NCBI RefSeq assembly: GCF_003334305.1
Contig: NZ_QOWS01000016.1
Length of the DNA stretch: 64,000 nucleotides
Direction: 5' to 3' (one strand)
Source of the DNA: Escherichia coli
Lineage (GTDB): Bacteria; Pseudomonadota; Gammaproteobacteria; Enterobacterales; Enterobacteriaceae
The notes beneath the pieces were generated by a model. It was not told the DNA's origin. It made no database searches and saw only the letters and a program-made list of their open reading frames with translations. The translations under genes and the position numbers were made by a program. Shown here piece after piece: positions 1-30,575 of this stretch. Position 1 is the first letter of the stretch; the number at the start of each line of letters is the position of its first letter.

Positions 1-1712
1 CGCTGGCGCAACTGCGCCGCGAGCATTTCGGCTTTATTTTCCAGCGTTACCATTTACTTTCGCATTTAACCGCCGAGCAGAACGTTGAAGTACCCGCCGT
101 CTATGCCGGTCTTGAGCGGAAACAGCGGCTGCTTCGCGCCCAGGGGTTACTGCAACGACTGGGGCTGGAAGACCGTACAGAGTATTATCCGGCACAGCTT
201 TCGGGTGGTCAGCAACAGCGCGTCAGCATCGCGCGGGCATTGATGAACGGCGGTCAGGTAATTCTTGCCGATGAACCAACCGGCGCACTGGACAGCCATT
301 CTGGCGAAGAGGTGATGGCGATCCTGCATCAGCTGCGCGATCGCGGGCATACGGTGATTATCGTCACCCACGATCCGCAGGTCGCTGCTCAGGCCGAGCG
401 GGTGATCGAAATTCGCGACGGCGAAATTGTGCGCAATCCTCCCGCCATTGAAAAAGTGAATGTTGCTGGCGGGACGGAGCCTGTTGTCAACACGGTGTCT
501 GGCTGGCGGCAGTTTGTCAGCGGTTTTAACGAGGCGCTGACGATGGCATGGCGGGCGCTGGCAGCGAATAAAATGCGTACTTTACTGACCATGCTGGGGA
601 TTATTATCGGTATTGCGTCGGTGGTTTCCATTGTCGTGGTGGGTGACGCCGCCAAACAAATGGTGCTGGCGGATATTCGTTCTATTGGTACGAATACTAT
701 TGATGTCTATCCCGGGAAAGATTTTGGCGATGACGATCCGCAATATCAGCAGGCGCTGAAGTACGACGACTTAATCGCCATCCAAAAACAACCGTGGGTC
801 GCCTCAGCCACACCTGCCGTCTCGCAAAACCTGCGCCTGCGTTATAACAATGTTGATGTTGCTGCCAGTGCCAATGGCGTGAGCGGCGATTATTTTAATG
901 TCTATGGCATGACCTTCAGTGAAGGAAACACCTTTAATCAGGAGCAGCTGAACGGTCGTGCGCAGGTCGTGGTTCTCGACAGTAATACTCGCCGCCAGCT
1001 TTTCCCCCATAAAGCAGATGTGGTTGGCGAGGTGATTCTGGTCGGCAATATGCCCGCCAGAGTCATTGGTGTGGCGGAAGAAAAACAGTCGATGTTTGGT
1101 AGCAGTAAAGTGCTGCGTGTCTGGCTACCTTACAGCACGATGTCCGGGCGAGTTATGGGCCAGTCGTGGCTGAACTCCATTACTGTCAGGGTAAAAGAAG
1201 GATTTGACAGCGCCGAGGCGGAACAGCAACTCACGCGTTTACTTTCACTGCGCCACGGAAAGAAGGATTTCTTTACCTGGAACATGGACGGCGTCTTGAA
1301 AACTGTTGAAAAGACCACACGTACTTTACAACTGTTTCTGACGCTGGTGGCGGTGATTTCGCTGGTGGTGGGCGGTATTGGTGTAATGAATATTATGCTG
1401 GTGTCAGTGACCGAGCGGACGCGGGAAATTGGCATTCGCATGGCTGTAGGTGCGCGAGCAAGCGATGTTTTGCAACAGTTCCTGATCGAAGCCGTACTGG
1501 TTTGCCTGGTGGGTGGCGCGTTGGGAATAACTCTGTCACTGTTAATTGCTTTCACCTTGCAGCTTTTCTTACCCGGCTGGGAGATTGGTTTTTCACCGTT
1601 GGCACTGCTGCTGGCGTTTCTCTGCTCGACGGCCACCGGGATTTTATTTGGATGGTTACCCGCACGAAATGCGGCACGACTGGATCCAGTAGATGCTCTG
1701 GCACGAGAGTAA
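1..1712 (+). CDS. macB: macB, macrolide export ABC transporter ATPase/permease; 5' end truncated by window edge (codon phase starts at nt 3)
   Basis: Open frame runs from window start to stop at 1710-1712; translation shows ABC signature LSGGQQQR, Walker B ILADEPT and C-terminal FtsX-type TM segments. Confidence 0.93.
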   Translation, partial: LAQLRREHFGFIFQRYHLLSHLTAEQNVEVPAVYAGLERKQRLLRAQGLLQRLGLEDRTEYYPAQLSGGQQQRVSIARALMNGGQVILADEPTGALDSHSGEEVMAILHQLRDRGHTVIIVTHDPQVAAQAERVIEIRDGEIVRNPPAIEKVNVAGGTEPVVNTVSGWRQFVSGFNEALTMAWRALAANKMRTLLTMLGIIIGIASVVSIVVVGDAAKQMVLADIRSIGTNTIDVYPGKDFGDDDPQYQQALKYDDLIAIQKQPWVASATPAVSQNLRLRYNNVDVAASANGVSGDYFNVYGMTFSEGNTFNQEQLNGRAQVVVLDSNTRRQLFPHKADVVGEVILVGNMPARVIGVAEEKQSMFGSSKVLRVWLPYSTMSGRVMGQSWLNSITVRVKEGFDSAEAEQQLTRLLSLRHGKKDFFTWNMDGVLKTVEKTTRTLQLFLTLVAVISLVVGGIGVMNIMLVSVTERTREIGIRMAVGARASDVLQQFLIEAVLVCLVGGALGITLSLLIAFTLQLFLPGWEIGFSPLALLLAFLCSTATGILFGWLPARNAARLDPVDALARE

Positions 1713-1721
1713 TTTTTGAGA

Positions 1722-1753
1722 TAAAAATGCCAGCCGATCGGGCTGGCATTTTG
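1722..1753. terminator. Bidirectional terminator between convergent macB and cspD
   Basis: TGCCAGCC-GATCG-GGCTGGCA hairpin flanked by AAAAA (5') and TTTT (3'). Confidence 0.75.
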
Positions 1754-1784
1754 CCTTTAGGATGTACACAATGAGACAGAAGAG

Positions 1785-2009
1785 CTATGCGACTGCCGCT
1801 TCTACTTCGACGGGCACAATAACACTGGCGTGATTGCCTTTTGGCCCCTGGTGGACATCAAACTGAACGGATTGTCCAGCTTTTAGCGTTCTGTAACCAT
1901 CCATCTGAATGGTGGAATAATGAGCGAAAATATCTTCGCCGCCGCCTTCAGGGCAGATGAAACCAAACCCTTTGGCATTGTTGAACCACTTAACAGTACC
2001 CTTTTCCAT
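1785..2009 (-). CDS. cspD: cspD, cold-shock-domain stationary-phase protein (74 aa)
   Basis: ORF track 1785..2039; start trimmed to MEKGTVKWFNNAKGFGFI (RNP1 motif); ATG at 2007-2009 on minus strand. Confidence 0.93.
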   Translation of the reverse strand: MEKGTVKWFNNAKGFGFICPEGGGEDIFAHYSTIQMDGYRTLKAGQSVQFDVHQGPKGNHASVIVPVEVEAAVA

Positions 2010-2229
2010 GCTTCGACATCCTTCGCAAATCTTATACAAGTAAGATGGAATAAACCGGGGTCAGAGAGGGGGCTGTTCAAAACCTCGCCAACTCTAGAAA
2101 TACAATTTAGAGAATTAGGGCGAGCCGTCAAGCGTTTGACAGGGGCCAGGGGGCAGGTATGAATCAAAAATTTGAAGCAGTTAACGCTATTGACAGGAAT
2201 GTGACAGATGTCGCTGATGCCAACGATAG

Positions 2230-2247
2230 ATGATAGTTATCTATCAT
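2230..2247. promoter_or_regulatory. Inverted repeat in the cspD/clpS divergent region (possible operator)
   Basis: ATGATAG-ttat-CTATCAT, 7-bp perfect arms, about 85 bp upstream of the clpS ATG. Confidence 0.3.
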
Positions 2248-2331
2248 GTGGAGTAGATTGGTCAGGCAAATAAGCTCTTGTCAGCGGCAGGGCGTTCTGC
2301 CGATAACCGTAATCGAAGATGATAACTGACA

Positions 2332-2652
2332 ATGGGTAAAACGAACGACTGGCTGGACTTTGATCAACTGGCGGAAGAAAAAGTTCGCGACGCGCTAAAA
2401 CCGCCATCTATGTATAAAGTGATATTAGTCAATGATGATTACACTCCGATGGAGTTTGTTATTGACGTGTTACAAAAATTCTTTTCTTATGATGTAGAAC
2501 GTGCAACGCAATTGATGCTCGCTGTTCACTACCAGGGGAAGGCCATTTGCGGAGTCTTTACCGCCGAGGTTGCAGAAACCAAAGTGGCGATGGTGAACAA
2601 GTACGCGAGGGAGAATGAGCATCCATTGCTGTGTACGCTAGAAAAAGCCTGA
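2332..2652 (+). CDS. clpS: clpS, ClpA adaptor for N-degron substrates (106 aa)
   Basis: ORF 2332..2652; protein [43 protein letters not shown] is recognisable as ClpS. Confidence 0.95.
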
Positions 2653-2682
2653 ATGCAGGCATAAAAATTGGGGGAGGTGCCT

Positions 2683-4959
2683 ATGCTCAATCAAGAACTG
2701 GAACTCAGTTTAAATATGGCTTTCGCCAGAGCGCGCGAGCACCGTCATGAGTTTATGACCGTCGAGCACTTGTTACTGGCGCTGCTCAGTAACCCATCTG
2801 CCCGGGAGGCGCTGGAAGCGTGTTCTGTGGATTTGGTTGCGCTCCGTCAGGAACTGGAAGCCTTTATTGAACAAACCACACCCGTTCTGCCTGCCAGTGA
2901 AGAGGAGCGCGACACACAGCCGACGCTGAGTTTTCAGCGTGTACTGCAACGTGCGGTCTTCCATGTCCAATCCTCCGGTCGCAATGAGGTAACCGGTGCA
3001 AACGTTCTGGTCGCTATCTTTAGCGAACAGGAGTCGCAGGCGGCATATCTGTTGCGTAAACATGAAGTCAGCCGTCTCGATGTGGTGAACTTTATCTCTC
3101 ATGGCACGCGTAAAGACGAGCCGACACAGTCTTCTGATCCTGGCAGCCAGCCAAACAGCGAAGAACTAGCTGGTGGGGAGGAACGTATGGAGAATTTCAC
3201 GACGAACCTGAATCAGCTTGCGCGCGTGGGCGGAATCGACCCACTGATTGGTCGTGAGAAGGAGCTGGAGCGTGCTATTCAGGTTCTCTGCCGTCGCCGT
3301 AAAAACAACCCGCTGCTGGTGGGGGAATCTGGTGTCGGTAAAACCGCGATTGCGGAAGGTCTTGCCTGGCGAATTGTTCAGGGCGATGTGCCGGAAGTGA
3401 TGGCTGACTGTACGATTTACTCTCTCGATATCGGTTCTCTGTTAGCGGGCACTAAATATCGCGGCGACTTTGAAAAACGTTTTAAAGCGTTGCTCAAGCA
3501 ACTGGAGCAGGACACTAACAGCATCCTGTTTATTGATGAGATCCACACCATTATCGGTGCGGGGGCAGCGTCTGGTGGCCAGGTCGATGCGGCTAACCTG
3601 ATCAAACCGTTGCTCTCCAGCGGTAAAATTCGCGTAATTGGTTCGACAACCTATCAGGAGTTCAGCAACATTTTCGAGAAAGACCGTGCTCTGGCGCGTC
3701 GCTTCCAGAAAATTGATATTACTGAACCGTCGATCGAAGAAACTGTTCAAATCATCAATGGCCTGAAACCGAAGTATGAAGCGCACCACGACGTGCGTTA
3801 TACCGCAAAAGCGGTGCGTGCAGCGGTAGAGCTGGCGGTGAAATACATTAACGATCGTCATCTGCCGGATAAAGCCATTGACGTTATCGACGAAGCGGGC
3901 GCTCGCGCACGCCTGATGCCGGTAAGCAAACGCAAGAAAACCGTTAATGTGGCGGATATTGAGTCCGTGGTGGCCCGTATTGCGCGCATTCCAGAGAAGA
4001 GTGTTTCTCAGAGTGACCGCGATACCCTGAAAAACCTCGGCGATCGCCTGAAAATGCTGGTCTTCGGTCAGGATAAAGCCATTGAGGCGCTGACTGAAGC
4101 CATTAAGATGGCGCGTGCAGGTTTAGGTCACGAACATAAACCGGTTGGTTCGTTCCTGTTTGCCGGCCCTACCGGGGTCGGGAAAACAGAGGTGACGGTA
4201 CAGCTTTCGAAAGCGTTGGGCATTGAGCTGCTGCGCTTTGATATGTCCGAGTATATGGAACGCCATACCGTCAGCCGTCTGATTGGTGCGCCTCCGGGAT
4301 ACGTTGGTTTTGATCAGGGAGGTTTGCTGACTGATGCGGTCATCAAGCATCCACATGCGGTGCTGTTGCTGGACGAAATCGAGAAAGCGCATCCGGACGT
4401 GTTCAATATTCTGTTGCAGGTGATGGACAACGGTACGCTGACCGATAACAACGGACGCAAAGCGGACTTCCGTAACGTGGTGCTGGTGATGACCACCAAC
4501 GCCGGGGTACGTGAAACTGAGCGTAAATCCATTGGTCTTATCCACCAGGATAACAGCACCGATGCGATGGAGGAGATCAAGAAGATCTTTACACCGGAAT
4601 TCCGTAACCGTCTCGACAACATTATCTGGTTTGATCATCTGTCAACCGACGTGATCCATCAGGTGGTGGATAAATTCATCGTCGAGTTGCAGGTTCAGCT
4701 GGATCAGAAAGGTGTTTCTCTGGAAGTGAGCCAGGAAGCGCGTAACTGGCTGGCCGAGAAAGGTTACGACCGGGCAATGGGCGCACGTCCGATGGCGCGT
4801 GTCATCCAGGACAACCTGAAAAAACCGCTCGCCAACGAACTGCTGTTTGGTTCGCTGGTGGACGGCGGTCAGGTCACCGTCGCGCTGGATAAAGAGAAAA
4901 ATGAGCTGACTTACGGATTCCAGAGTGCACAAAAGCACAAGGCGGAAGCAGCGCATTAA
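2683..4959 (+). CDS. clpA: clpA, ATP-dependent Clp protease ATP-binding subunit (758 aa)
   Basis: ORF track 2668..4959; start trimmed to ATG 2683 ([10 protein letters not shown]) preceded by GGGGAGG SD; two AAA+ modules with Walker A GESGVGKT and GPTGVGKT. Confidence 0.96.
3176..3189 (+). promoter_or_regulatory. Internal ribosome-binding site plus in-frame ATG (Met169) inside clpA, consistent with internal initiation giving the shorter ClpA form
   Basis: GGAGG at 3176-3180 followed 6 nt later by in-frame ATG at 3187-3189 (…[11 protein letters not shown]…). Confidence 0.5.
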
Positions 4960-25365: not shown

Positions 25366-26514
25366 ATGTCCACGTATACCCGGCCTGTCATGCTTTTGCT
25401 GTCTGGCCTGCTTTTGTTGACTCTGGCGATCGCGGTGTTAAATACACTCGTGCCGCTTTGGCTCGCCCAGGAACACATGTCCACATGGCAGGTAGGCGTT
25501 GTCAGCTCATCCTATTTTACCGGCAACCTTGTCGGTACATTGCTGACAGGGTATGTCATTAAGCGCATTGGCTTTAACCGCAGCTATTATCTGGCCTCCT
25601 TCATTTTTGCCGCTGGCTGTGCCGGCCTTGGCCTGATGATTGGATTCTGGAGCTGGTTGGCTTGGCGTTTTGTCGCGGGCGTCGGCTGTGCCATGATTTG
25701 GGTGGTTGTTGAGAGCGCGCTGATGTGCAGTGGGACGTCACGTAACCGTGGGCGTTTGCTTGCTGCGTATATGATGGTTTATTACGTGGGAACGTTTTTA
25801 GGCCAGTTACTGGTCAGCAAAGTTTCAACCGAGCTGATGTCCGTATTGCCGTGGGTTACAGGTTTGACGTTGGCAGGGATCTTACCGCTGTTGTTTACGC
25901 GTGTGCTGAATCAGCAGGCTGAAAACCATGATTCGACGTCAATTACGTCAATGCTAAAACTCCGTCAGGCGCGGCTTGGCGTGAATGGCTGCATTATCTC
26001 AGGAATCGTTCTGGGATCTCTATATGGCCTGATGCCGCTGTACCTCAATCACAAAGGGGTGAGCAATGCCAGCATTGGTTTCTGGATGGCGGTACTGGTC
26101 AGTGCGGGTATCCTTGGACAATGGCCGATTGGACGTCTGGCGGATAAGTTTGGTCGACTGCTGGTGTTGCGTGTTCAGGTCTTTGTCGTCATTCTCGGCA
26201 GTATCGCGATGCTTAGCCAGGCGGCGATGGCCCCAGCGTTATTCATCCTCGGTGCCGCTGGCTTTACGCTATATCCGGTGGCGATGGCATGGGCTTGCGA
26301 GAAAGTTGAACATCATCAACTGGTGGCGATGAACCAGGCCTTACTGTTGAGCTATACTGTGGGAAGTCTGCTTGGCCCGTCATTTACCGCTATGCTAATG
26401 CAGAATTTCTCCGATAATTTATTGTTTATCATGATCGCCAGCGTATCGTTTATCTATTTGCTGATGCTGCTGCGCAACGCCGGTCATACGCCGAAACCCG
26501 TTGCTCACGTGTAA
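25366..26514 (+). CDS. ycaD: ycaD, MFS-type transporter (382 aa)
   Basis: 12-TM-like hydrophobic profile; protein [37 protein letters not shown]. Confidence 0.9.
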
Positions 26515-26524
26515 ATGAATTCAA

Positions 26525-26562
26525 GCAGAGTGTGAACTTACTGTTTCACACTCTGCTTTTTT
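26525..26562 (+). terminator. Rho-independent terminator of ycaD
   Basis: Perfect 12-bp inverted repeat GCAGAGTGTGAA…TTCACACTCTGC followed by TTTTTTGTTT. Confidence 0.8.
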
Positions 26563-26723
26563 GTTTCTTCTATCTGACTTGCTTTATTCCAAATTTTATT
26601 CGTTTAAAAATAAAATGTGCAGCAGGTTATAATTTTGCATTTCGCTATTTCCGCACTTCTTATTTGCCGCGCATAATCCCTCGTTTTACAGATGCCCCTT
26701 TAATTTTGGCGAAGGATTTGTCT

Positions 26724-28154
26724 ATGGCTGGGAATGTTCAGGAAAAACAGTTGCGATGGTACAACATTGCGCTGATGTCTTTTATCACTGTCTGGGGTTT
26801 TGGCAACGTTGTTAATAACTATGCCAACCAGGGGCTGGTGGTTGTTTTTTCATGGGTGTTTATCTTTGCACTCTATTTCACACCTTATGCGCTAATTGTT
26901 GGTCAGTTAGGCTCGACCTTCAAAGATGGGAAGGGCGGGGTCAGTACCTGGATTAAACACACGATGGGACCCGGACTGGCTTATCTCGCCGCGTGGACCT
27001 ACTGGGTGGTGCATATTCCCTATCTGGCACAAAAACCCCAGGCAATTCTGATTGCGCTCGGTTGGGCGATGAAAGGCGACGGTTCGCTAATCAAAGAATA
27101 TTCAGTCGTAGCGTTACAGGGGTTAACGCTGGTGCTGTTTATCTTCTTTATGTGGGTTGCTTCACGCGGTATGAAATCGCTGAAAATCGTCGGTTCTGTG
27201 GCAGGGATTGCGATGTTTGTTATGTCGCTCCTGTATGTGGCGATGGCGGTAACCGCGCCTGCGATTACTGAAGTGCATATTGCGACCACAAACATTACCT
27301 GGGAAACGTTCATTCCTCATATCGACTTTACCTACATTACCACTATTTCAATGCTGGTTTTCGCGGTTGGCGGAGCAGAGAAGATTTCTCCTTACGTTAA
27401 TCAAACGCGCAACCCAGGAAAAGAATTTCCAAAAGGGATGCTATGCCTGGCGGTGATGGTTGCGGTTTGTGCCATTCTGGGCTCACTGGCGATGGGGATG
27501 ATGTTTGACTCGCGTAATATCCCGGATGACTTAATGACTAACGGTCAATATTACGCCTTTCAGAAGCTGGGCGAGTATTACAACATGGGTAATACTTTAA
27601 TGGTGATTTACGCCATTGCGAATACCCTGGGACAAGTAGCTGCGCTGGTATTCTCGATTGATGCCCCGCTTAAAGTGCTATTAGGTGATGCTGACAGCAA
27701 ATATATTCCAGCCAGTTTATGTCGTACCAACGCTTCTGGTACGCCCGTTAATGGCTATTTTCTGACCCTGGTGCTGGTGGCAATTCTGATTATGCTGCCG
27801 ACTCTCGGCATCGGTGATATGAACAATCTCTATAAATGGCTGTTGAATCTTAACTCGGTAGTGATGCCGCTGCGTTATTTATGGGTATTTGTTGCATTTA
27901 TTGCAGTCGTTCGCCTGGCGCAGAAATATAAACCAGAATATGTCTTTATTCGTAATAAGCCTCTGGCAATGACCGTCGGGATTTGGTGTTTTGCCTTTAC
28001 CGCCTTTGCCTGCTTGACGGGGATCTTCCCGAAAATGGAAGCCTTCACTGCAGAGTGGACCTTCCAGTTGGCGCTGAATGTTGCAACGCCGTTTGTGCTG
28101 GTAGGATTAGGACTGATTTTCCCGCTGCTGGCGCGTAAAGCGAATAGTAAATAA
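26724..28154 (+). CDS. ycaM: ycaM, APC-family amino acid/polyamine-type transporter (476 aa)
   Basis: ORF track 26532..28154 trimmed to ATG 26724 (MAGNVQEKQLRWYNIALMSFITVWGFGNV); polytopic membrane protein. Confidence 0.9.
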   Translation: MAGNVQEKQLRWYNIALMSFITVWGFGNVVNNYANQGLVVVFSWVFIFALYFTPYALIVGQLGSTFKDGKGGVSTWIKHTMGPGLAYLAAWTYWVVHIPYLAQKPQAILIALGWAMKGDGSLIKEYSVVALQGLTLVLFIFFMWVASRGMKSLKIVGSVAGIAMFVMSLLYVAMAVTAPAITEVHIATTNITWETFIPHIDFTYITTISMLVFAVGGAEKISPYVNQTRNPGKEFPKGMLCLAVMVAVCAILGSLAMGMMFDSRNIPDDLMTNGQYYAFQKLGEYYNMGNTLMVIYAIANTLGQVAALVFSIDAPLKVLLGDADSKYIPASLCRTNASGTPVNGYFLTLVLVAILIMLPTLGIGDMNNLYKWLLNLNSVVMPLRYLWVFVAFIAVVRLAQKYKPEYVFIRNKPLAMTVGIWCFAFTAFACLTGIFPKMEAFTAEWTFQLALNVATPFVLVGLGLIFPLLARKANSK

Positions 28155-29063
28155 TTATTGTGGTCGGTGACGCTGACTCTGGCAGATCTGACCCGTTTTT
28201 ACATAATCGAGAAATGCGCGCAAGCCGCAGGACATATACTGGCGGTTTGGATAATAGATCTGGAAGCCTGGACGCTCTGTGCTCCAGTCTTCCAGTACAC
28301 ATTCTAAACGACCAGTATCAAGGTACTCCTTGATCTGTTCATAGAGCAGATACCCGATACCAGCACCCATCAAAACGGCCTCCAGTTCAGCATCAACATC
28401 ATCCAGAATGATATTTCCTGCGACAGCAATTTCCAGCTCCTTTGCAAATTGCCAGTGGAAAGGTTTGCCGCTGGGATAACGAAAAACAACACATTGATGA
28501 TTAAGCAGATCATGAGGATGGCGGGGTTTGCCATATCTTGCAAAGTACTCTGGCGTTGCTGCTACACATAATTTCACTGGCGGGCCGATCGCCACGCTGA
28601 TCATATCTTTTTCGACGATGCCACTAAGTCGAACGCCAGCGTCAAAGCCCTGTTGGACGATATCGACAAGAGAATCGTCAGTTGTGAGCTCGACTTTAAT
28701 ATCAGGATATTCACGTGTGAAACCAACCAGTAAAGGCATTAAAAATATACGTGCAGCTACCCGGGCGGCATTGATTTTGAGCGTTCCTGTCGGTGTCAGA
28801 CGAAAATCATTCATCTCATCTAACATGATCTGAATTTCGTCGAAAGCTGGGCGCAATCGTTCATAGAGATTAGAACCCGCTTCCGTTAACGATACGCTTC
28901 GGGTTGTCCGATTGAATAAGCGAATTTTAAGACGTTGTTCCAGTGTTTTAATACTATGGCTAATGGCGGACGAGGATAAGCCTAATTCATCGCCCGCTGC
29001 ACGAAAGCTTTGATTACGGGCCACGGCAAAGAAAGTGGCAAAGTCAGACATATTCATCCGCAT
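28155..29063 (-). CDS. ycaN: ycaN, LysR-family transcriptional regulator (302 aa)
   Basis: N-terminal HTH (FRAAGDELGLSSSAISHSIKTLEQRL) plus LysR substrate-binding domain. Confidence 0.9.
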   Translation of the reverse strand: MRMNMSDFATFFAVARNQSFRAAGDELGLSSSAISHSIKTLEQRLKIRLFNRTTRSVSLTEAGSNLYERLRPAFDEIQIMLDEMNDFRLTPTGTLKINAARVAARIFLMPLLVGFTREYPDIKVELTTDDSLVDIVQQGFDAGVRLSGIVEKDMISVAIGPPVKLCVAATPEYFARYGKPRHPHDLLNHQCVVFRYPSGKPFHWQFAKELEIAVAGNIILDDVDAELEAVLMGAGIGYLLYEQIKEYLDTGRLECVLEDWSTERPGFQIYYPNRQYMSCGLRAFLDYVKTGQICQSQRHRPQ

Positions 29064-29066
29064 TAG

Positions 29067-29079
29067 TGAAAATCCTTCA
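29067..29079. promoter_or_regulatory. Candidate LysR-type T-N11-A operator in the ycaN/ycaK divergent region
   Basis: TGAA-aatcc-TTCA dyad (T-N11-A) just upstream of the ycaN start and about 85 bp upstream of the ycaK ATG. Confidence 0.3.
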
Positions 29080-29162
29080 TTAACTCATCCTGAATCATCA
29101 CGTTTACAGGATTATGCCGCCTGCGTAAAGTGCGCTCCAGAACTTAACGTGGAGGTAAAATT

Positions 29163-29753
29163 ATGCAGTCTGAACGTATTTATTTGGTATGGGCCCATCC
29201 TCGTCATGATTCATTGACCGCACATATTGCTGATGCGATCCATCAGCGGGCAATGGAGCGGAAAATACAGGTGACGGAACTCGATTTATATCGGCGTAAT
29301 TTCAACCCGGTGATGACGTCGGAAGATGAACCAGACTGGAAGAATATGGATAAACGTTATTCTCCAGAGGTTCATCAGCTTTATTCAGAGCTGCTTGAGC
29401 ATGACACGTTAGTGGTGGTTTTTCCTCTCTGGTGGTACAGCTTCCCGGCAATGCTAAAAGGATATATTGACAGAGTATGGAATAATGGGCTGGCTTATGG
29501 AGATGGGCACAAATTACCATTCAATAAAGTTCGTTGGGTGGCGCTGGTTGGAGGAGACAAAGAATCATTTGTCCAGATGGGCTGGGAAAAAAATATAAGC
29601 GATTATTTAAAAAATATGTGCAGTTATCTTGGTATTGAAGATGCCGATGTCACTTTCTTGTGTAATACAGTGGTATTCGATGGGGAAGAACTTCACGCGA
29701 GCTATTATCAGTCGTTATTATCTCAGGTACGGGATATGGTAGATGCACTATAA
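29163..29753 (+). CDS. ycaK: ycaK, flavodoxin-like NAD(P)H:quinone oxidoreductase family protein (196 aa)
   Basis: Protein MQSERIYLVWAHPRHDSLTAHIADAIHQ…; divergent from the LysR gene ycaN. Confidence 0.88.
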   Translation: MQSERIYLVWAHPRHDSLTAHIADAIHQRAMERKIQVTELDLYRRNFNPVMTSEDEPDWKNMDKRYSPEVHQLYSELLEHDTLVVVFPLWWYSFPAMLKGYIDRVWNNGLAYGDGHKLPFNKVRWVALVGGDKESFVQMGWEKNISDYLKNMCSYLGIEDADVTFLCNTVVFDGEELHASYYQSLLSQVRDMVDAL

Positions 29754-29792
29754 GATGTGTTAAAAACGCTGTAGCAGAATGAAGCGCGGAAT

Positions 29793-29822
29793 AAAAAAGC
29801 GGCAACTCAATAAAGTTGCCGC
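29793..29822 (-). terminator. Terminator downstream of pflA
   Basis: GCGGCAACT-CAATAA-AGTTGCCGC hairpin with plus-strand AAAAAA immediately 5' (U-tract on minus strand). Confidence 0.7.
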
Positions 29823-29834
29823 TTTACGGGGAAA

Positions 29835-30575
29835 TTAGAACATTACCTTATGACCGTACTGCTCAAGAATGCCTTTCACGCGTTCCATGGTCTCTTTCTT
29901 CGGTGGTTTAACACCGTCGAGTTTGTACTCTTCACCCATTGCCACCCATTTGTGTTTGCCCAGCTCGTGGTAGGGGAGAAGCTCGATTTTCTCAACGTTG
30001 CCCATATCACGGGTAAATTCACCGAGGCGATGCGCTGAATCGTCATCGTCAGACCAGCCTGGGACAACAACGTAGCGGATCCACACCTTCACATTTTTGT
30101 TCGCCAGATATTTGGCGAACTCCAGCGTGCGGTGATTGGAAACTCCAACCAGATTTTGGTGGATCTCGTCGTTCATCTGTTTGAGATCGAGCATTACCAG
30201 GTCGGTTACTTCCAGCAGTTCATCAATCACCGGATCGTAACGACGAACAAAACCGTTGGTGTCCAGACAGGTATGAATGCCTTCTTTTTTGCAGGCGCGG
30301 AACCAGTCACGAACAAACTCAGCTTGTAGGATTGCCTCACCGCCGGATGCGGTAACGCCGCCGCCGGAAGCGTTCATAAAGTGGCGATAGGTCACCACCT
30401 CTTTCATTAAATCTTCAACGGTAACTTCTTTACCGCCATGCGTATCCCAGGTGTCGCGGTTATGACAATACAGGCAGCGCATCAGGCAGCCCTGGAAAAA
30501 GGTGATAAAGCGAATACCTGGGCCGTCTACGGTTCCACAGGATTCAAAGGAGTGAATGCGACCAATAACTGACAT
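29835..30575 (-). CDS. pflA: pflA, pyruvate formate-lyase activating enzyme, radical SAM (246 aa)
   Basis: ORF track 29835..30602 trimmed to [20 protein letters not shown]; radical-SAM CxxxCxxC in [11 protein letters not shown]. Confidence 0.95.

Follow-up and report, generated by a model that had tools for sequence, protein, structure and literature searches.

Dar and Sorek (2018, NAR, PMC6061677) described a class of Rho-dependent transcripts that end precisely just past stable stem-loops without uridine-rich tails. Such ends are also found inside downstream coding sequences. The rut sites lie immediately downstream of the stem-loops, and the sharpness of the ends was attributed to trimming by PNPase and RNase II (PMC6061677). 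Another described system is the convergent excludon. In Table 1 of the ExcludonFinder study (NAR 2025, PMC12288877), ycaM-ycaN is found among the 165 convergent excludons of E. coli MG1655, a coverage-based call (cited here as published, not recomputed) meaning that in 50% or more of 58 MG1655 samples the transcription units defined from RNA-seq overlap. Convergent excludons have short intergenic distances (PMC12288877). Both the ycaM-ycaN overlap and the 3′ end of ycaM are already known from published genome-wide catalogues. In this study, the junction of the two genes was analysed in a window of 64,000 nucleotides, which is the whole stretch of E. coli DNA under analysis. The two genes and their junction lie in the window as follows.

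26724-28154, + strand: ycaM, which encodes a 476-aa permease of the APC family and has the stop codon TAA at 28152-28154 (ORF and translation, RefSeq annotation, orthologues).
28155-29063, - strand: ycaN, which encodes a 302-aa regulator of the LysR type; its stop codon at 28155-28157 reads TTA on the + strand (ORF, Pfam, annotation, orthologue alignment).
28150-28159, no strand: the perfect 10-nt palindrome AATAATTATT, composed of the two abutting TAA stop codons and their neighbouring bases (direct read).

A direct read of positions 28140-28169 gives gcgaatagta aataattatt gtggtcggtg, and the frame across the junction is AGT AAA TAA / TTA TTG TGG. The TAA stop codon of ycaM on the + strand directly adjoins the stop codon of ycaN, and the number of intergenic bases is zero. 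The ORF listing agrees, with the + strand ORF ending at 28154 and the - strand ORF occupying 28155-29063, and RefSeq places ycaM and ycaN end to end at 953750/953751 in BL21(DE3) and at 948659/948660 in MG1655. A preliminary description of this DNA had noted directly adjacent stop codons, a TAATTA palindrome at the junction, and the absence of an intergenic hairpin. All three observations were confirmed, with the addition that the real extent of the palindrome is 10 nt; there is no intergenic DNA to hold a hairpin, and the palindrome itself is loopless. The same description had named mis-assigned stop codons as a possible flaw, and both stop codons hold when the proteins are compared with their relatives. 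YcaM orthologues across Enterobacteriaceae are 82-99% identical, and YcaM can be aligned with those of Escherichia, Citrobacter, Salmonella, Kluyvera, and others to about residue 470-474 of 476. YcaN has the Pfam domains HTH_1 (residues 7-63) and LysR_substrate (residues 91-290 of 302) and can be aligned with its orthologues up to ...LRAFLDYVK. The C-terminal tails are not conserved after this point in YcaN, nor after ...PLLAR in YcaM. Thus, judging from the coordinates, the orthologues, and the expected domains of both ORFs, ycaM and ycaN are a truly abutting convergent pair of protein-coding genes. The 1 kb around the junction is 100% identical to that of E. coli strain 05-3629 and at least 99% identical in thousands of other genomes. 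Window coordinates equal MG1655 (NC_000913.3) coordinates minus 920505; the window and MG1655 differ by 25 substitutions and no indels over 4001 bases and are identical at 28119-28621. The sole characterisation of YcaN is an RNA-seq/ChIP-exo study, which linked the regulator to neighbouring y-genes (PMC9068703). The ycaN gene is a weakly expressed one.

Does the palindrome have a meaning of its own? Its 6-nt core arises automatically wherever a stop codon meets the same stop codon on the opposite strand, and in an AT-rich sequence a further two pairs on either side are nothing out of the ordinary. Since there is no loop, AATAATTATT has no capacity to form a hairpin. The palindrome also varies among Escherichia lineages, being TAA plus TCA in Escherichia sp. 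E1V33 and shifted in E. albertii. A role as a protein-binding or structural element was rejected on these three grounds (automatic origin, lack of a loop, and variation); the palindrome is a by-product of the meeting of two TAA stop codons, with no apparent mechanistic role.

The spacing of zero was compared with that of all convergent CDS pairs in four 50-kb stretches of MG1655 (200 kb, n = 29). The spacings are -19, -14, -4, 7, 16, 34, 35, 39, 39, 41, 47, 52, 53, 54, 59, 63, 73, 77, 97, 117, 125, 127, 155, 185, 199, 199, 242, 247, and 714 nt. In this sample, about one in ten convergent pairs overlap (3 of 29), and about one in six have no room for an intergenic terminator (spacing of 16 nt or less in 5 of 29). 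Since overlapping and tight spacing are this frequent, the zero spacing of ycaM and ycaN is a normal member of the distribution.

Where, then, do the two transcripts end? The features that bear on this question are listed below.

28295-28303, + strand: 3′ terminus attributed to ycaM, with its dominant position at 28300 (MG1655 948805; published Term-seq re-analysis).
28260-28295, + strand: stable RNA hairpin in the 3′ UTR of ycaM, antisense to ycaN codons 257-268 (folding, dG -21.1 kcal/mol).
28259-28440, + strand: C-rich, G-poor stretch, a candidate Rho-utilisation region (composition scan, analogy with Dar and Sorek 2018).
28159-28200, + strand: weak hairpin followed by UUUUU (28196-28200), rejected as an intrinsic terminator of ycaM (folding).
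28032-28066, - strand: weak hairpin followed by AUUUUC inside ycaM, the only candidate past the ycaN stop codon with any U run (folding, z +0.34).

A published TRS re-analysis of the Dar and Sorek Term-seq libraries (Supplementary Data 2) lists a + strand terminus at 948800-948808 of MG1655, with the dominant position at 948805. The signal is 0.92, and the adjusted p values in three replicates are 5.9e-13, 2.2e-10, and 0. In that re-analysis the terminus is classed as 'Distant primary, ycaM', which means a terminus 100-200 nt past the stop codon with none detected in the first 100 nt. By coordinate conversion, 948805 corresponds to position 28300 of the window, which is 146 nt beyond the ycaM stop codon and inside ycaN. 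Two neighbouring ends served as controls for the conversion. The ycaD end at 947069 (Adams 2021) falls at 26564, within the U-rich tail of a strong terminator, that of ycaD, and 6 nt beyond its stem. The pflA end at 950297 falls at 29792, one base beyond the run of six U's in the pflA terminator. The Term-seq data thus settle that the 3′ end of ycaM lies inside ycaN. From 944900 to 950297, the re-analysis contains no - strand terminus. The supplementary files of Adams 2021 list the ycaD end and no 3′ end of ycaM or ycaN, and no entries for ycaM or ycaN were found in the SMRT-Cappable-seq supplements. The preliminary description had reasoned that each terminator must lie inside the other gene or else that convergent read-through occurs, and had proposed Term-seq as the check. 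This reasoning turned out to be right for ycaM, which has a defined + strand 3′ end within ycaN, and the overlap of the two transcripts is supported by ExcludonFinder; for ycaN, no 3′ end was found in these sources. The overlap in vivo is documented by the published transcription units together with the Term-seq end 146 nt inside ycaN. Since each transcript has to end within the facing gene, the ycaM and ycaN transcripts overlap by at least about 150 nt.

The mapped end sits 5 nt past the stem of the hairpin at 28260-28295, which itself starts 105 nt past the ycaM stop codon. The hairpin has a 7-bp stem (CUGGAAG/CUUCCAG) and a 5-bp stem (CUGGA/UCCAG) with single-base bulges between them. Its z values against dinucleotide shuffles are -3.55 and -3.96, and among 200 shuffled sequences 0-1 reached an equal fold. 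No other 46-nt window in the 400 nt past the ycaM stop codon is as stable, and of 3000 windows of this length drawn at random from the 64-kb window just 0.17% reach its stability. A stable GC-rich stem-loop, as expected of a canonical intrinsic terminator, was found for ycaM only, in this hairpin inside ycaN. The other hallmark of such terminators, a U-tract of 7-8 nt directly after the stem, is missing; the hairpin is followed by UACACAUUCUAAAC, with the tail UACACAUUCU, and the tail read as UACACAUU has only three U residues in eight nucleotides. Over 28259-28440, the C/G ratio in 78-nt windows is 1.5-2.45, a value that describes composition only.

The hairpin sits in coding sequence (LEDWSTERPGFQ), and part of its pairing may be incidental to the coding of ycaN. 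The E. coli genomes bearing ycaN are at least 98% identical across the hairpin stretch, which leaves no covariation signal. In five other genera, the orthologous antisense ycaN segments fold at -6.8 to -15.6 kcal/mol, in contrast to -21.1 kcal/mol in E. coli. The stronger hairpin of E. coli is compatible with, and is not proof of, later selection for a 3′-end structure of ycaM. The hairpin is retained in Escherichia sp. MOD1-EC7003, in which ycaN has been lost and a longer remnant persists. It was also observed that Escherichia-specific WST codons strengthen the stem of the hairpin.

A scan of both strands for consensus terminators gave no match in the 170 nt to either side of the junction. 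The preliminary description had advised a search for intragenic hairpins in the first 100 nt beyond each stop codon. Directly past the ycaM stop codon lies the weak hairpin at 28159-28200; the stable one begins just outside the range. As a terminator of ycaM, the weak hairpin with its five U's was rejected, being no better than its shuffles (z -0.43) and having no 3′ terminus within 100 nt past the stop codon. Past the ycaN stop codon, the most stable - strand structures have -13 to -15 kcal/mol (best, -14.9), which is ordinary against the background. The hairpin at 28032-28066 with AUUUUC was likewise rejected as a terminator of ycaN, as it is not significant and has no mapped end. Rfam gave a single sub-threshold match in 26300-30000 at E<=1, located at the ycaD terminator.

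With no spacer available, both transcripts have to end within the gene opposite. For untranslated antisense read-through, diffuse Rho-dependent termination is the default expectation. The explanation that I favour, and hold to be fairly probable, is that of a spacerless convergent pair in which the end of ycaM is produced by likely Rho termination and trimming back to the hairpin, while ycaN transcription is stopped diffusely. In this scenario, ribosomes would be released at the UAA codon at 28152-28154, and RNA polymerase would go on to transcribe the 3′ end of ycaN in antisense. Termination of the untranslated ycaM RNA would follow, for which Rho, loaded on the C-rich, G-poor region at about 28260-28440, is the most likely agent. 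The 3′-to-5′ exonucleases may trim this RNA back to the hairpin at 28260-28295, leaving the sharp steady-state end at about 28300. Read-through from ycaN into antisense ycaM is presumably stopped diffusely by Rho. That the hairpin may alternatively be an inefficient intrinsic terminator or a simple processing stop was counted against this explanation.

A version of the intrinsic alternative would have the hairpin act as a non-canonical terminator of ycaM in the ycaN coding sequence, with RNA polymerase released at about 28300 without Rho. The high stability of the hairpin and the mapped end 5 nt past the stem suit such a terminator, and a low U content may be the sign of a mixed or transitional terminator (Dar and Sorek, PMC6061677). 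However, I regard it as unlikely, given a tail with only three U residues in eight nucleotides, the failure of the consensus scan to find a terminator at the hairpin, and the C-rich sequence directly downstream, which is the signature of the Rho-dependent class. Could dedicated termination instead be essentially absent, with both polymerases reading through? The end at 28300 would then be an intermediate of decay or processing, left by RNase III acting on the duplex or by an exonuclease stalled on a hairpin that owes its existence to the ycaN codons alone. RNA-seq coverage calls the pair an excludon, a canonical terminator is absent near the junction on both strands, and a mapped ycaN end is absent, all of which would fit. 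On the other hand, the 3′ end is sharp and reproducible among the three replicates, and the hairpin is far more stable than its orthologous antisense segments in the five other genera and is kept in an Escherichia lineage with ycaN deleted, which makes this reading quite improbable.

It is more improbable still that the + strand end at 28300 belongs not to the ycaM mRNA but to a short, separate antisense RNA, about 85 nt long and transcribed from a promoter inside ycaN (-35/-10 at 28179-28207). A promoter-like CTGGCA-17-CATAAT (9/12) does exist on the + strand at 28179-28207, and a stable hairpin at the end of the RNA would be in keeping with many small RNAs. Yet promoter-like matches in the region are at the chance level (7 found versus 5.8 expected), the Rfam search found no family match, and no transcription start site data were found in the literature searched; moreover, the RNA-seq coverage of ycaM crosses the junction (ExcludonFinder, PMC12288877).

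Is the junction conserved in E. coli and its relatives? Of the 5426 complete genomes of E. coli, only about 3320-3330 have the whole junction region, about 1000 match only up to window position 28267, and about 1060 have no match to the junction stretch. In the genomes of the second group, 28268-29778 is replaced by 40 bp, and a ycaN remnant of about 113 nt still abuts the ycaM stop codon. The break at 28267 lies within the hairpin; the possibility of a prophage attachment site there was rejected, as the break is due to a separate 1.5-kb deletion. A P2-like prophage is located between pflA and pflB. Among species representatives, similar ycaN remnants were found in Escherichia sp. E1V33, E. 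albertii, and one E. coli lineage. The ycaN-ycaK genes are absent from Citrobacter, Kluyvera, Yokenella, and the two Salmonella subspecies examined. Citrobacter, Kluyvera, and Yokenella have a canonical-looking GC-rich hairpin past the ycaM stop codon, in a short spacer before the convergent pflA gene, and the two Salmonella subspecies have a hairpin just past the ycaM stop codon. Outside Escherichia, ycaN is always paired with a divergent ycaK-like gene for a flavodoxin-fold protein, and it is often packed tight against a convergent neighbour; it overlaps ycaD by 28 nt in Pseudocitrobacter and a histidine-kinase gene by 11 nt in a Budviciaceae genome, and a gap of 39 nt separates it from ycaD in Shimwellia. 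As seen in this comparison of genomes, ycaN-ycaK is a variable module. The zero spacing probably arose by a rearrangement in the Escherichia lineage, in which the module was set against ycaM, the own terminator of ycaM was removed, and both ORFs came to run to the first stop codons in the AT-rich junction. The locus would show how the insertion of a gene module (ycaN-ycaK) can replace a native terminator.

A further interpretation, which I find very doubtful, is that the hairpin was shaped by selection within ycaN as a stabiliser of the 3′ end of the ycaM mRNA, and that the overlap of at least 150 nt lets ycaM transcription antagonise YcaN expression, making a functional excludon that couples the transporter to the LysR/ycaK module. 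The strengthening of the stem by the WST codons and the maintenance of the hairpin even where ycaN is deleted were counted toward such a selection-shaped reading. The locus has little importance beyond careful annotation. It illustrates a general packing rule, in which spacerless convergent genes have one mRNA 3′ end set by a stem-loop in the coding sequence of the other gene and an unavoidable overlap, and it could be used as a small example of coding sequence with a second role, as the 3′-end structure of the neighbouring gene.

How does the locus compare with the known systems? The ycaM end resembles the class of Dar and Sorek in having a sharp 3′ end a few nucleotides past a stem-loop, no U-rich tail or U-tract, a C-rich, G-poor region downstream, and a position inside the coding sequence of a neighbour. 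Members of that class would show more read-through under bicyclomycin or Rho depletion and longer tails in pnp or rnb mutants; the ycaM end is placed in it by sequence features only, as its most likely assignment. As a convergent excludon, ycaM-ycaN is explicitly listed and has the short spacing typical of the class; its membership comes from RNA-seq overlap alone, as distinct from mutually exclusive expression or RNase III processing. Like the nearby bidirectional intrinsic terminator between ycaK and pflA (GCGGCAAC...GTTGCCGC, about 29799-29822), the ycaM/ycaN junction must end two convergent units in minimal space. Unlike it, the junction has neither intergenic DNA nor a shared hairpin flanked by A- and U-tracts. 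The closest counterparts are other E. coli pairs, namely yhbQ-yhbS (-14 nt), yrbL-mtgA (-4 nt), ymiD-pdeR (-19 nt), and argG-yhbX (+7 nt), which are also placed tail to tail with too little space for an intergenic terminator, and several of which are on the excludon list as well. Between these pairs and ycaM-ycaN, there is no difference of substance, except that the spacing of the latter is exactly zero. The arrangement of ycaM and ycaN is ordinary for E. coli.

It was found that the ycaN-ycaK module (window 28268-29778), a LysR-type regulator gene with its divergent flavodoxin-fold partner, shows a presence/absence polymorphism among complete E. coli genomes (comparison loci L002 4506-4715 and L006-L009). 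The module is present in about 61% of these genomes. About 19% have a 1511-bp deletion of window 28268-29778 with 40 bp in its place, which leaves a ycaN 3′ remnant of roughly 113 nt abutting ycaM, and in about 20% a match to the stretch is absent. Since E. albertii and cryptic Escherichia clades have ycaN remnants with differing end points, it is suggested that ycaN-ycaK has been lost repeatedly.

Downstream of ycaM, the lineage of E. coli E69 (L023 5429-8880) has a third structural variant. There, the ycaM stop codon is TAG, directly followed by a GC hairpin (GCCCCGG-TTCG-CCGGGGC) and then by an AT-rich segment coding for a 782-aa protein whose C-terminus, judged by eye, is of the EAL type. 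E. coli EA13 (L003 5136-5140) has a strain-specific deletion of ~1 kb across the ycaM/ycaN junction itself. The 3′ ends of both genes have been cut off, and the two are annotated as partial pseudogenes with 3 nt between them. A complete P2-like prophage with genes for an integrase, C repressor, Cox, capsid and tail proteins, and Ogr lies between pflA and pflB in E. coli AST215 (L005 about 1559-36157). The AST215 pflA gene is annotated as 798 nt in length, versus 741 nt otherwise; thus, a fusion at the attachment site has probably joined phage sequence to the 5′ end of the gene.

Six matches of the ycaM/ycaN region were on plasmid-typed records, namely H24 (NZ_CP194962.1, a 243-kb record) and five other plasmid places. 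Either large plasmids that carry a piece of chromosome or errors of assembly may account for them.

On the upstream side of ycaM, two features were located in the window:
26523-26558, + strand, ycaD terminator, a perfect 14-bp hairpin followed by a T-run
26724, + strand, annotated start codon (ATG) of ycaM
On the - strand, the hairpin is scored as well, without a T-run after it. A 540-aa ORF starting from GTG 26532, which would extend ycaM by window 26532-26723, is an artefact whose start lies inside this hairpin.

YcaM orthologues in Enterobacteriaceae share 82-99% identity, and homologues with 62-66% identity were found in Firmicutes and Negativicutes anaerobes (L035-L041; Clostridium, Pelosinus, Anaerospora, and Sporomusaceae). 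These distant homologues, with no relatives of intermediate identity among the YcaM matches returned, hint at horizontal transfer of the transporter.

Tight packing against convergent neighbours was also seen for ycaN orthologues in other genera:
L051 3903-3930, Pseudocitrobacter, ycaN and ycaD, 28-nt overlap
L052 3393-3403, a Budviciaceae genome, ycaN and a histidine-kinase gene, 11-nt overlap
L054 3400-3440, Shimwellia, ycaN and ycaD, 39 nt apart
In all three, the divergent spacer between ycaN and the ycaK-like gene is 97-101 nt in length.
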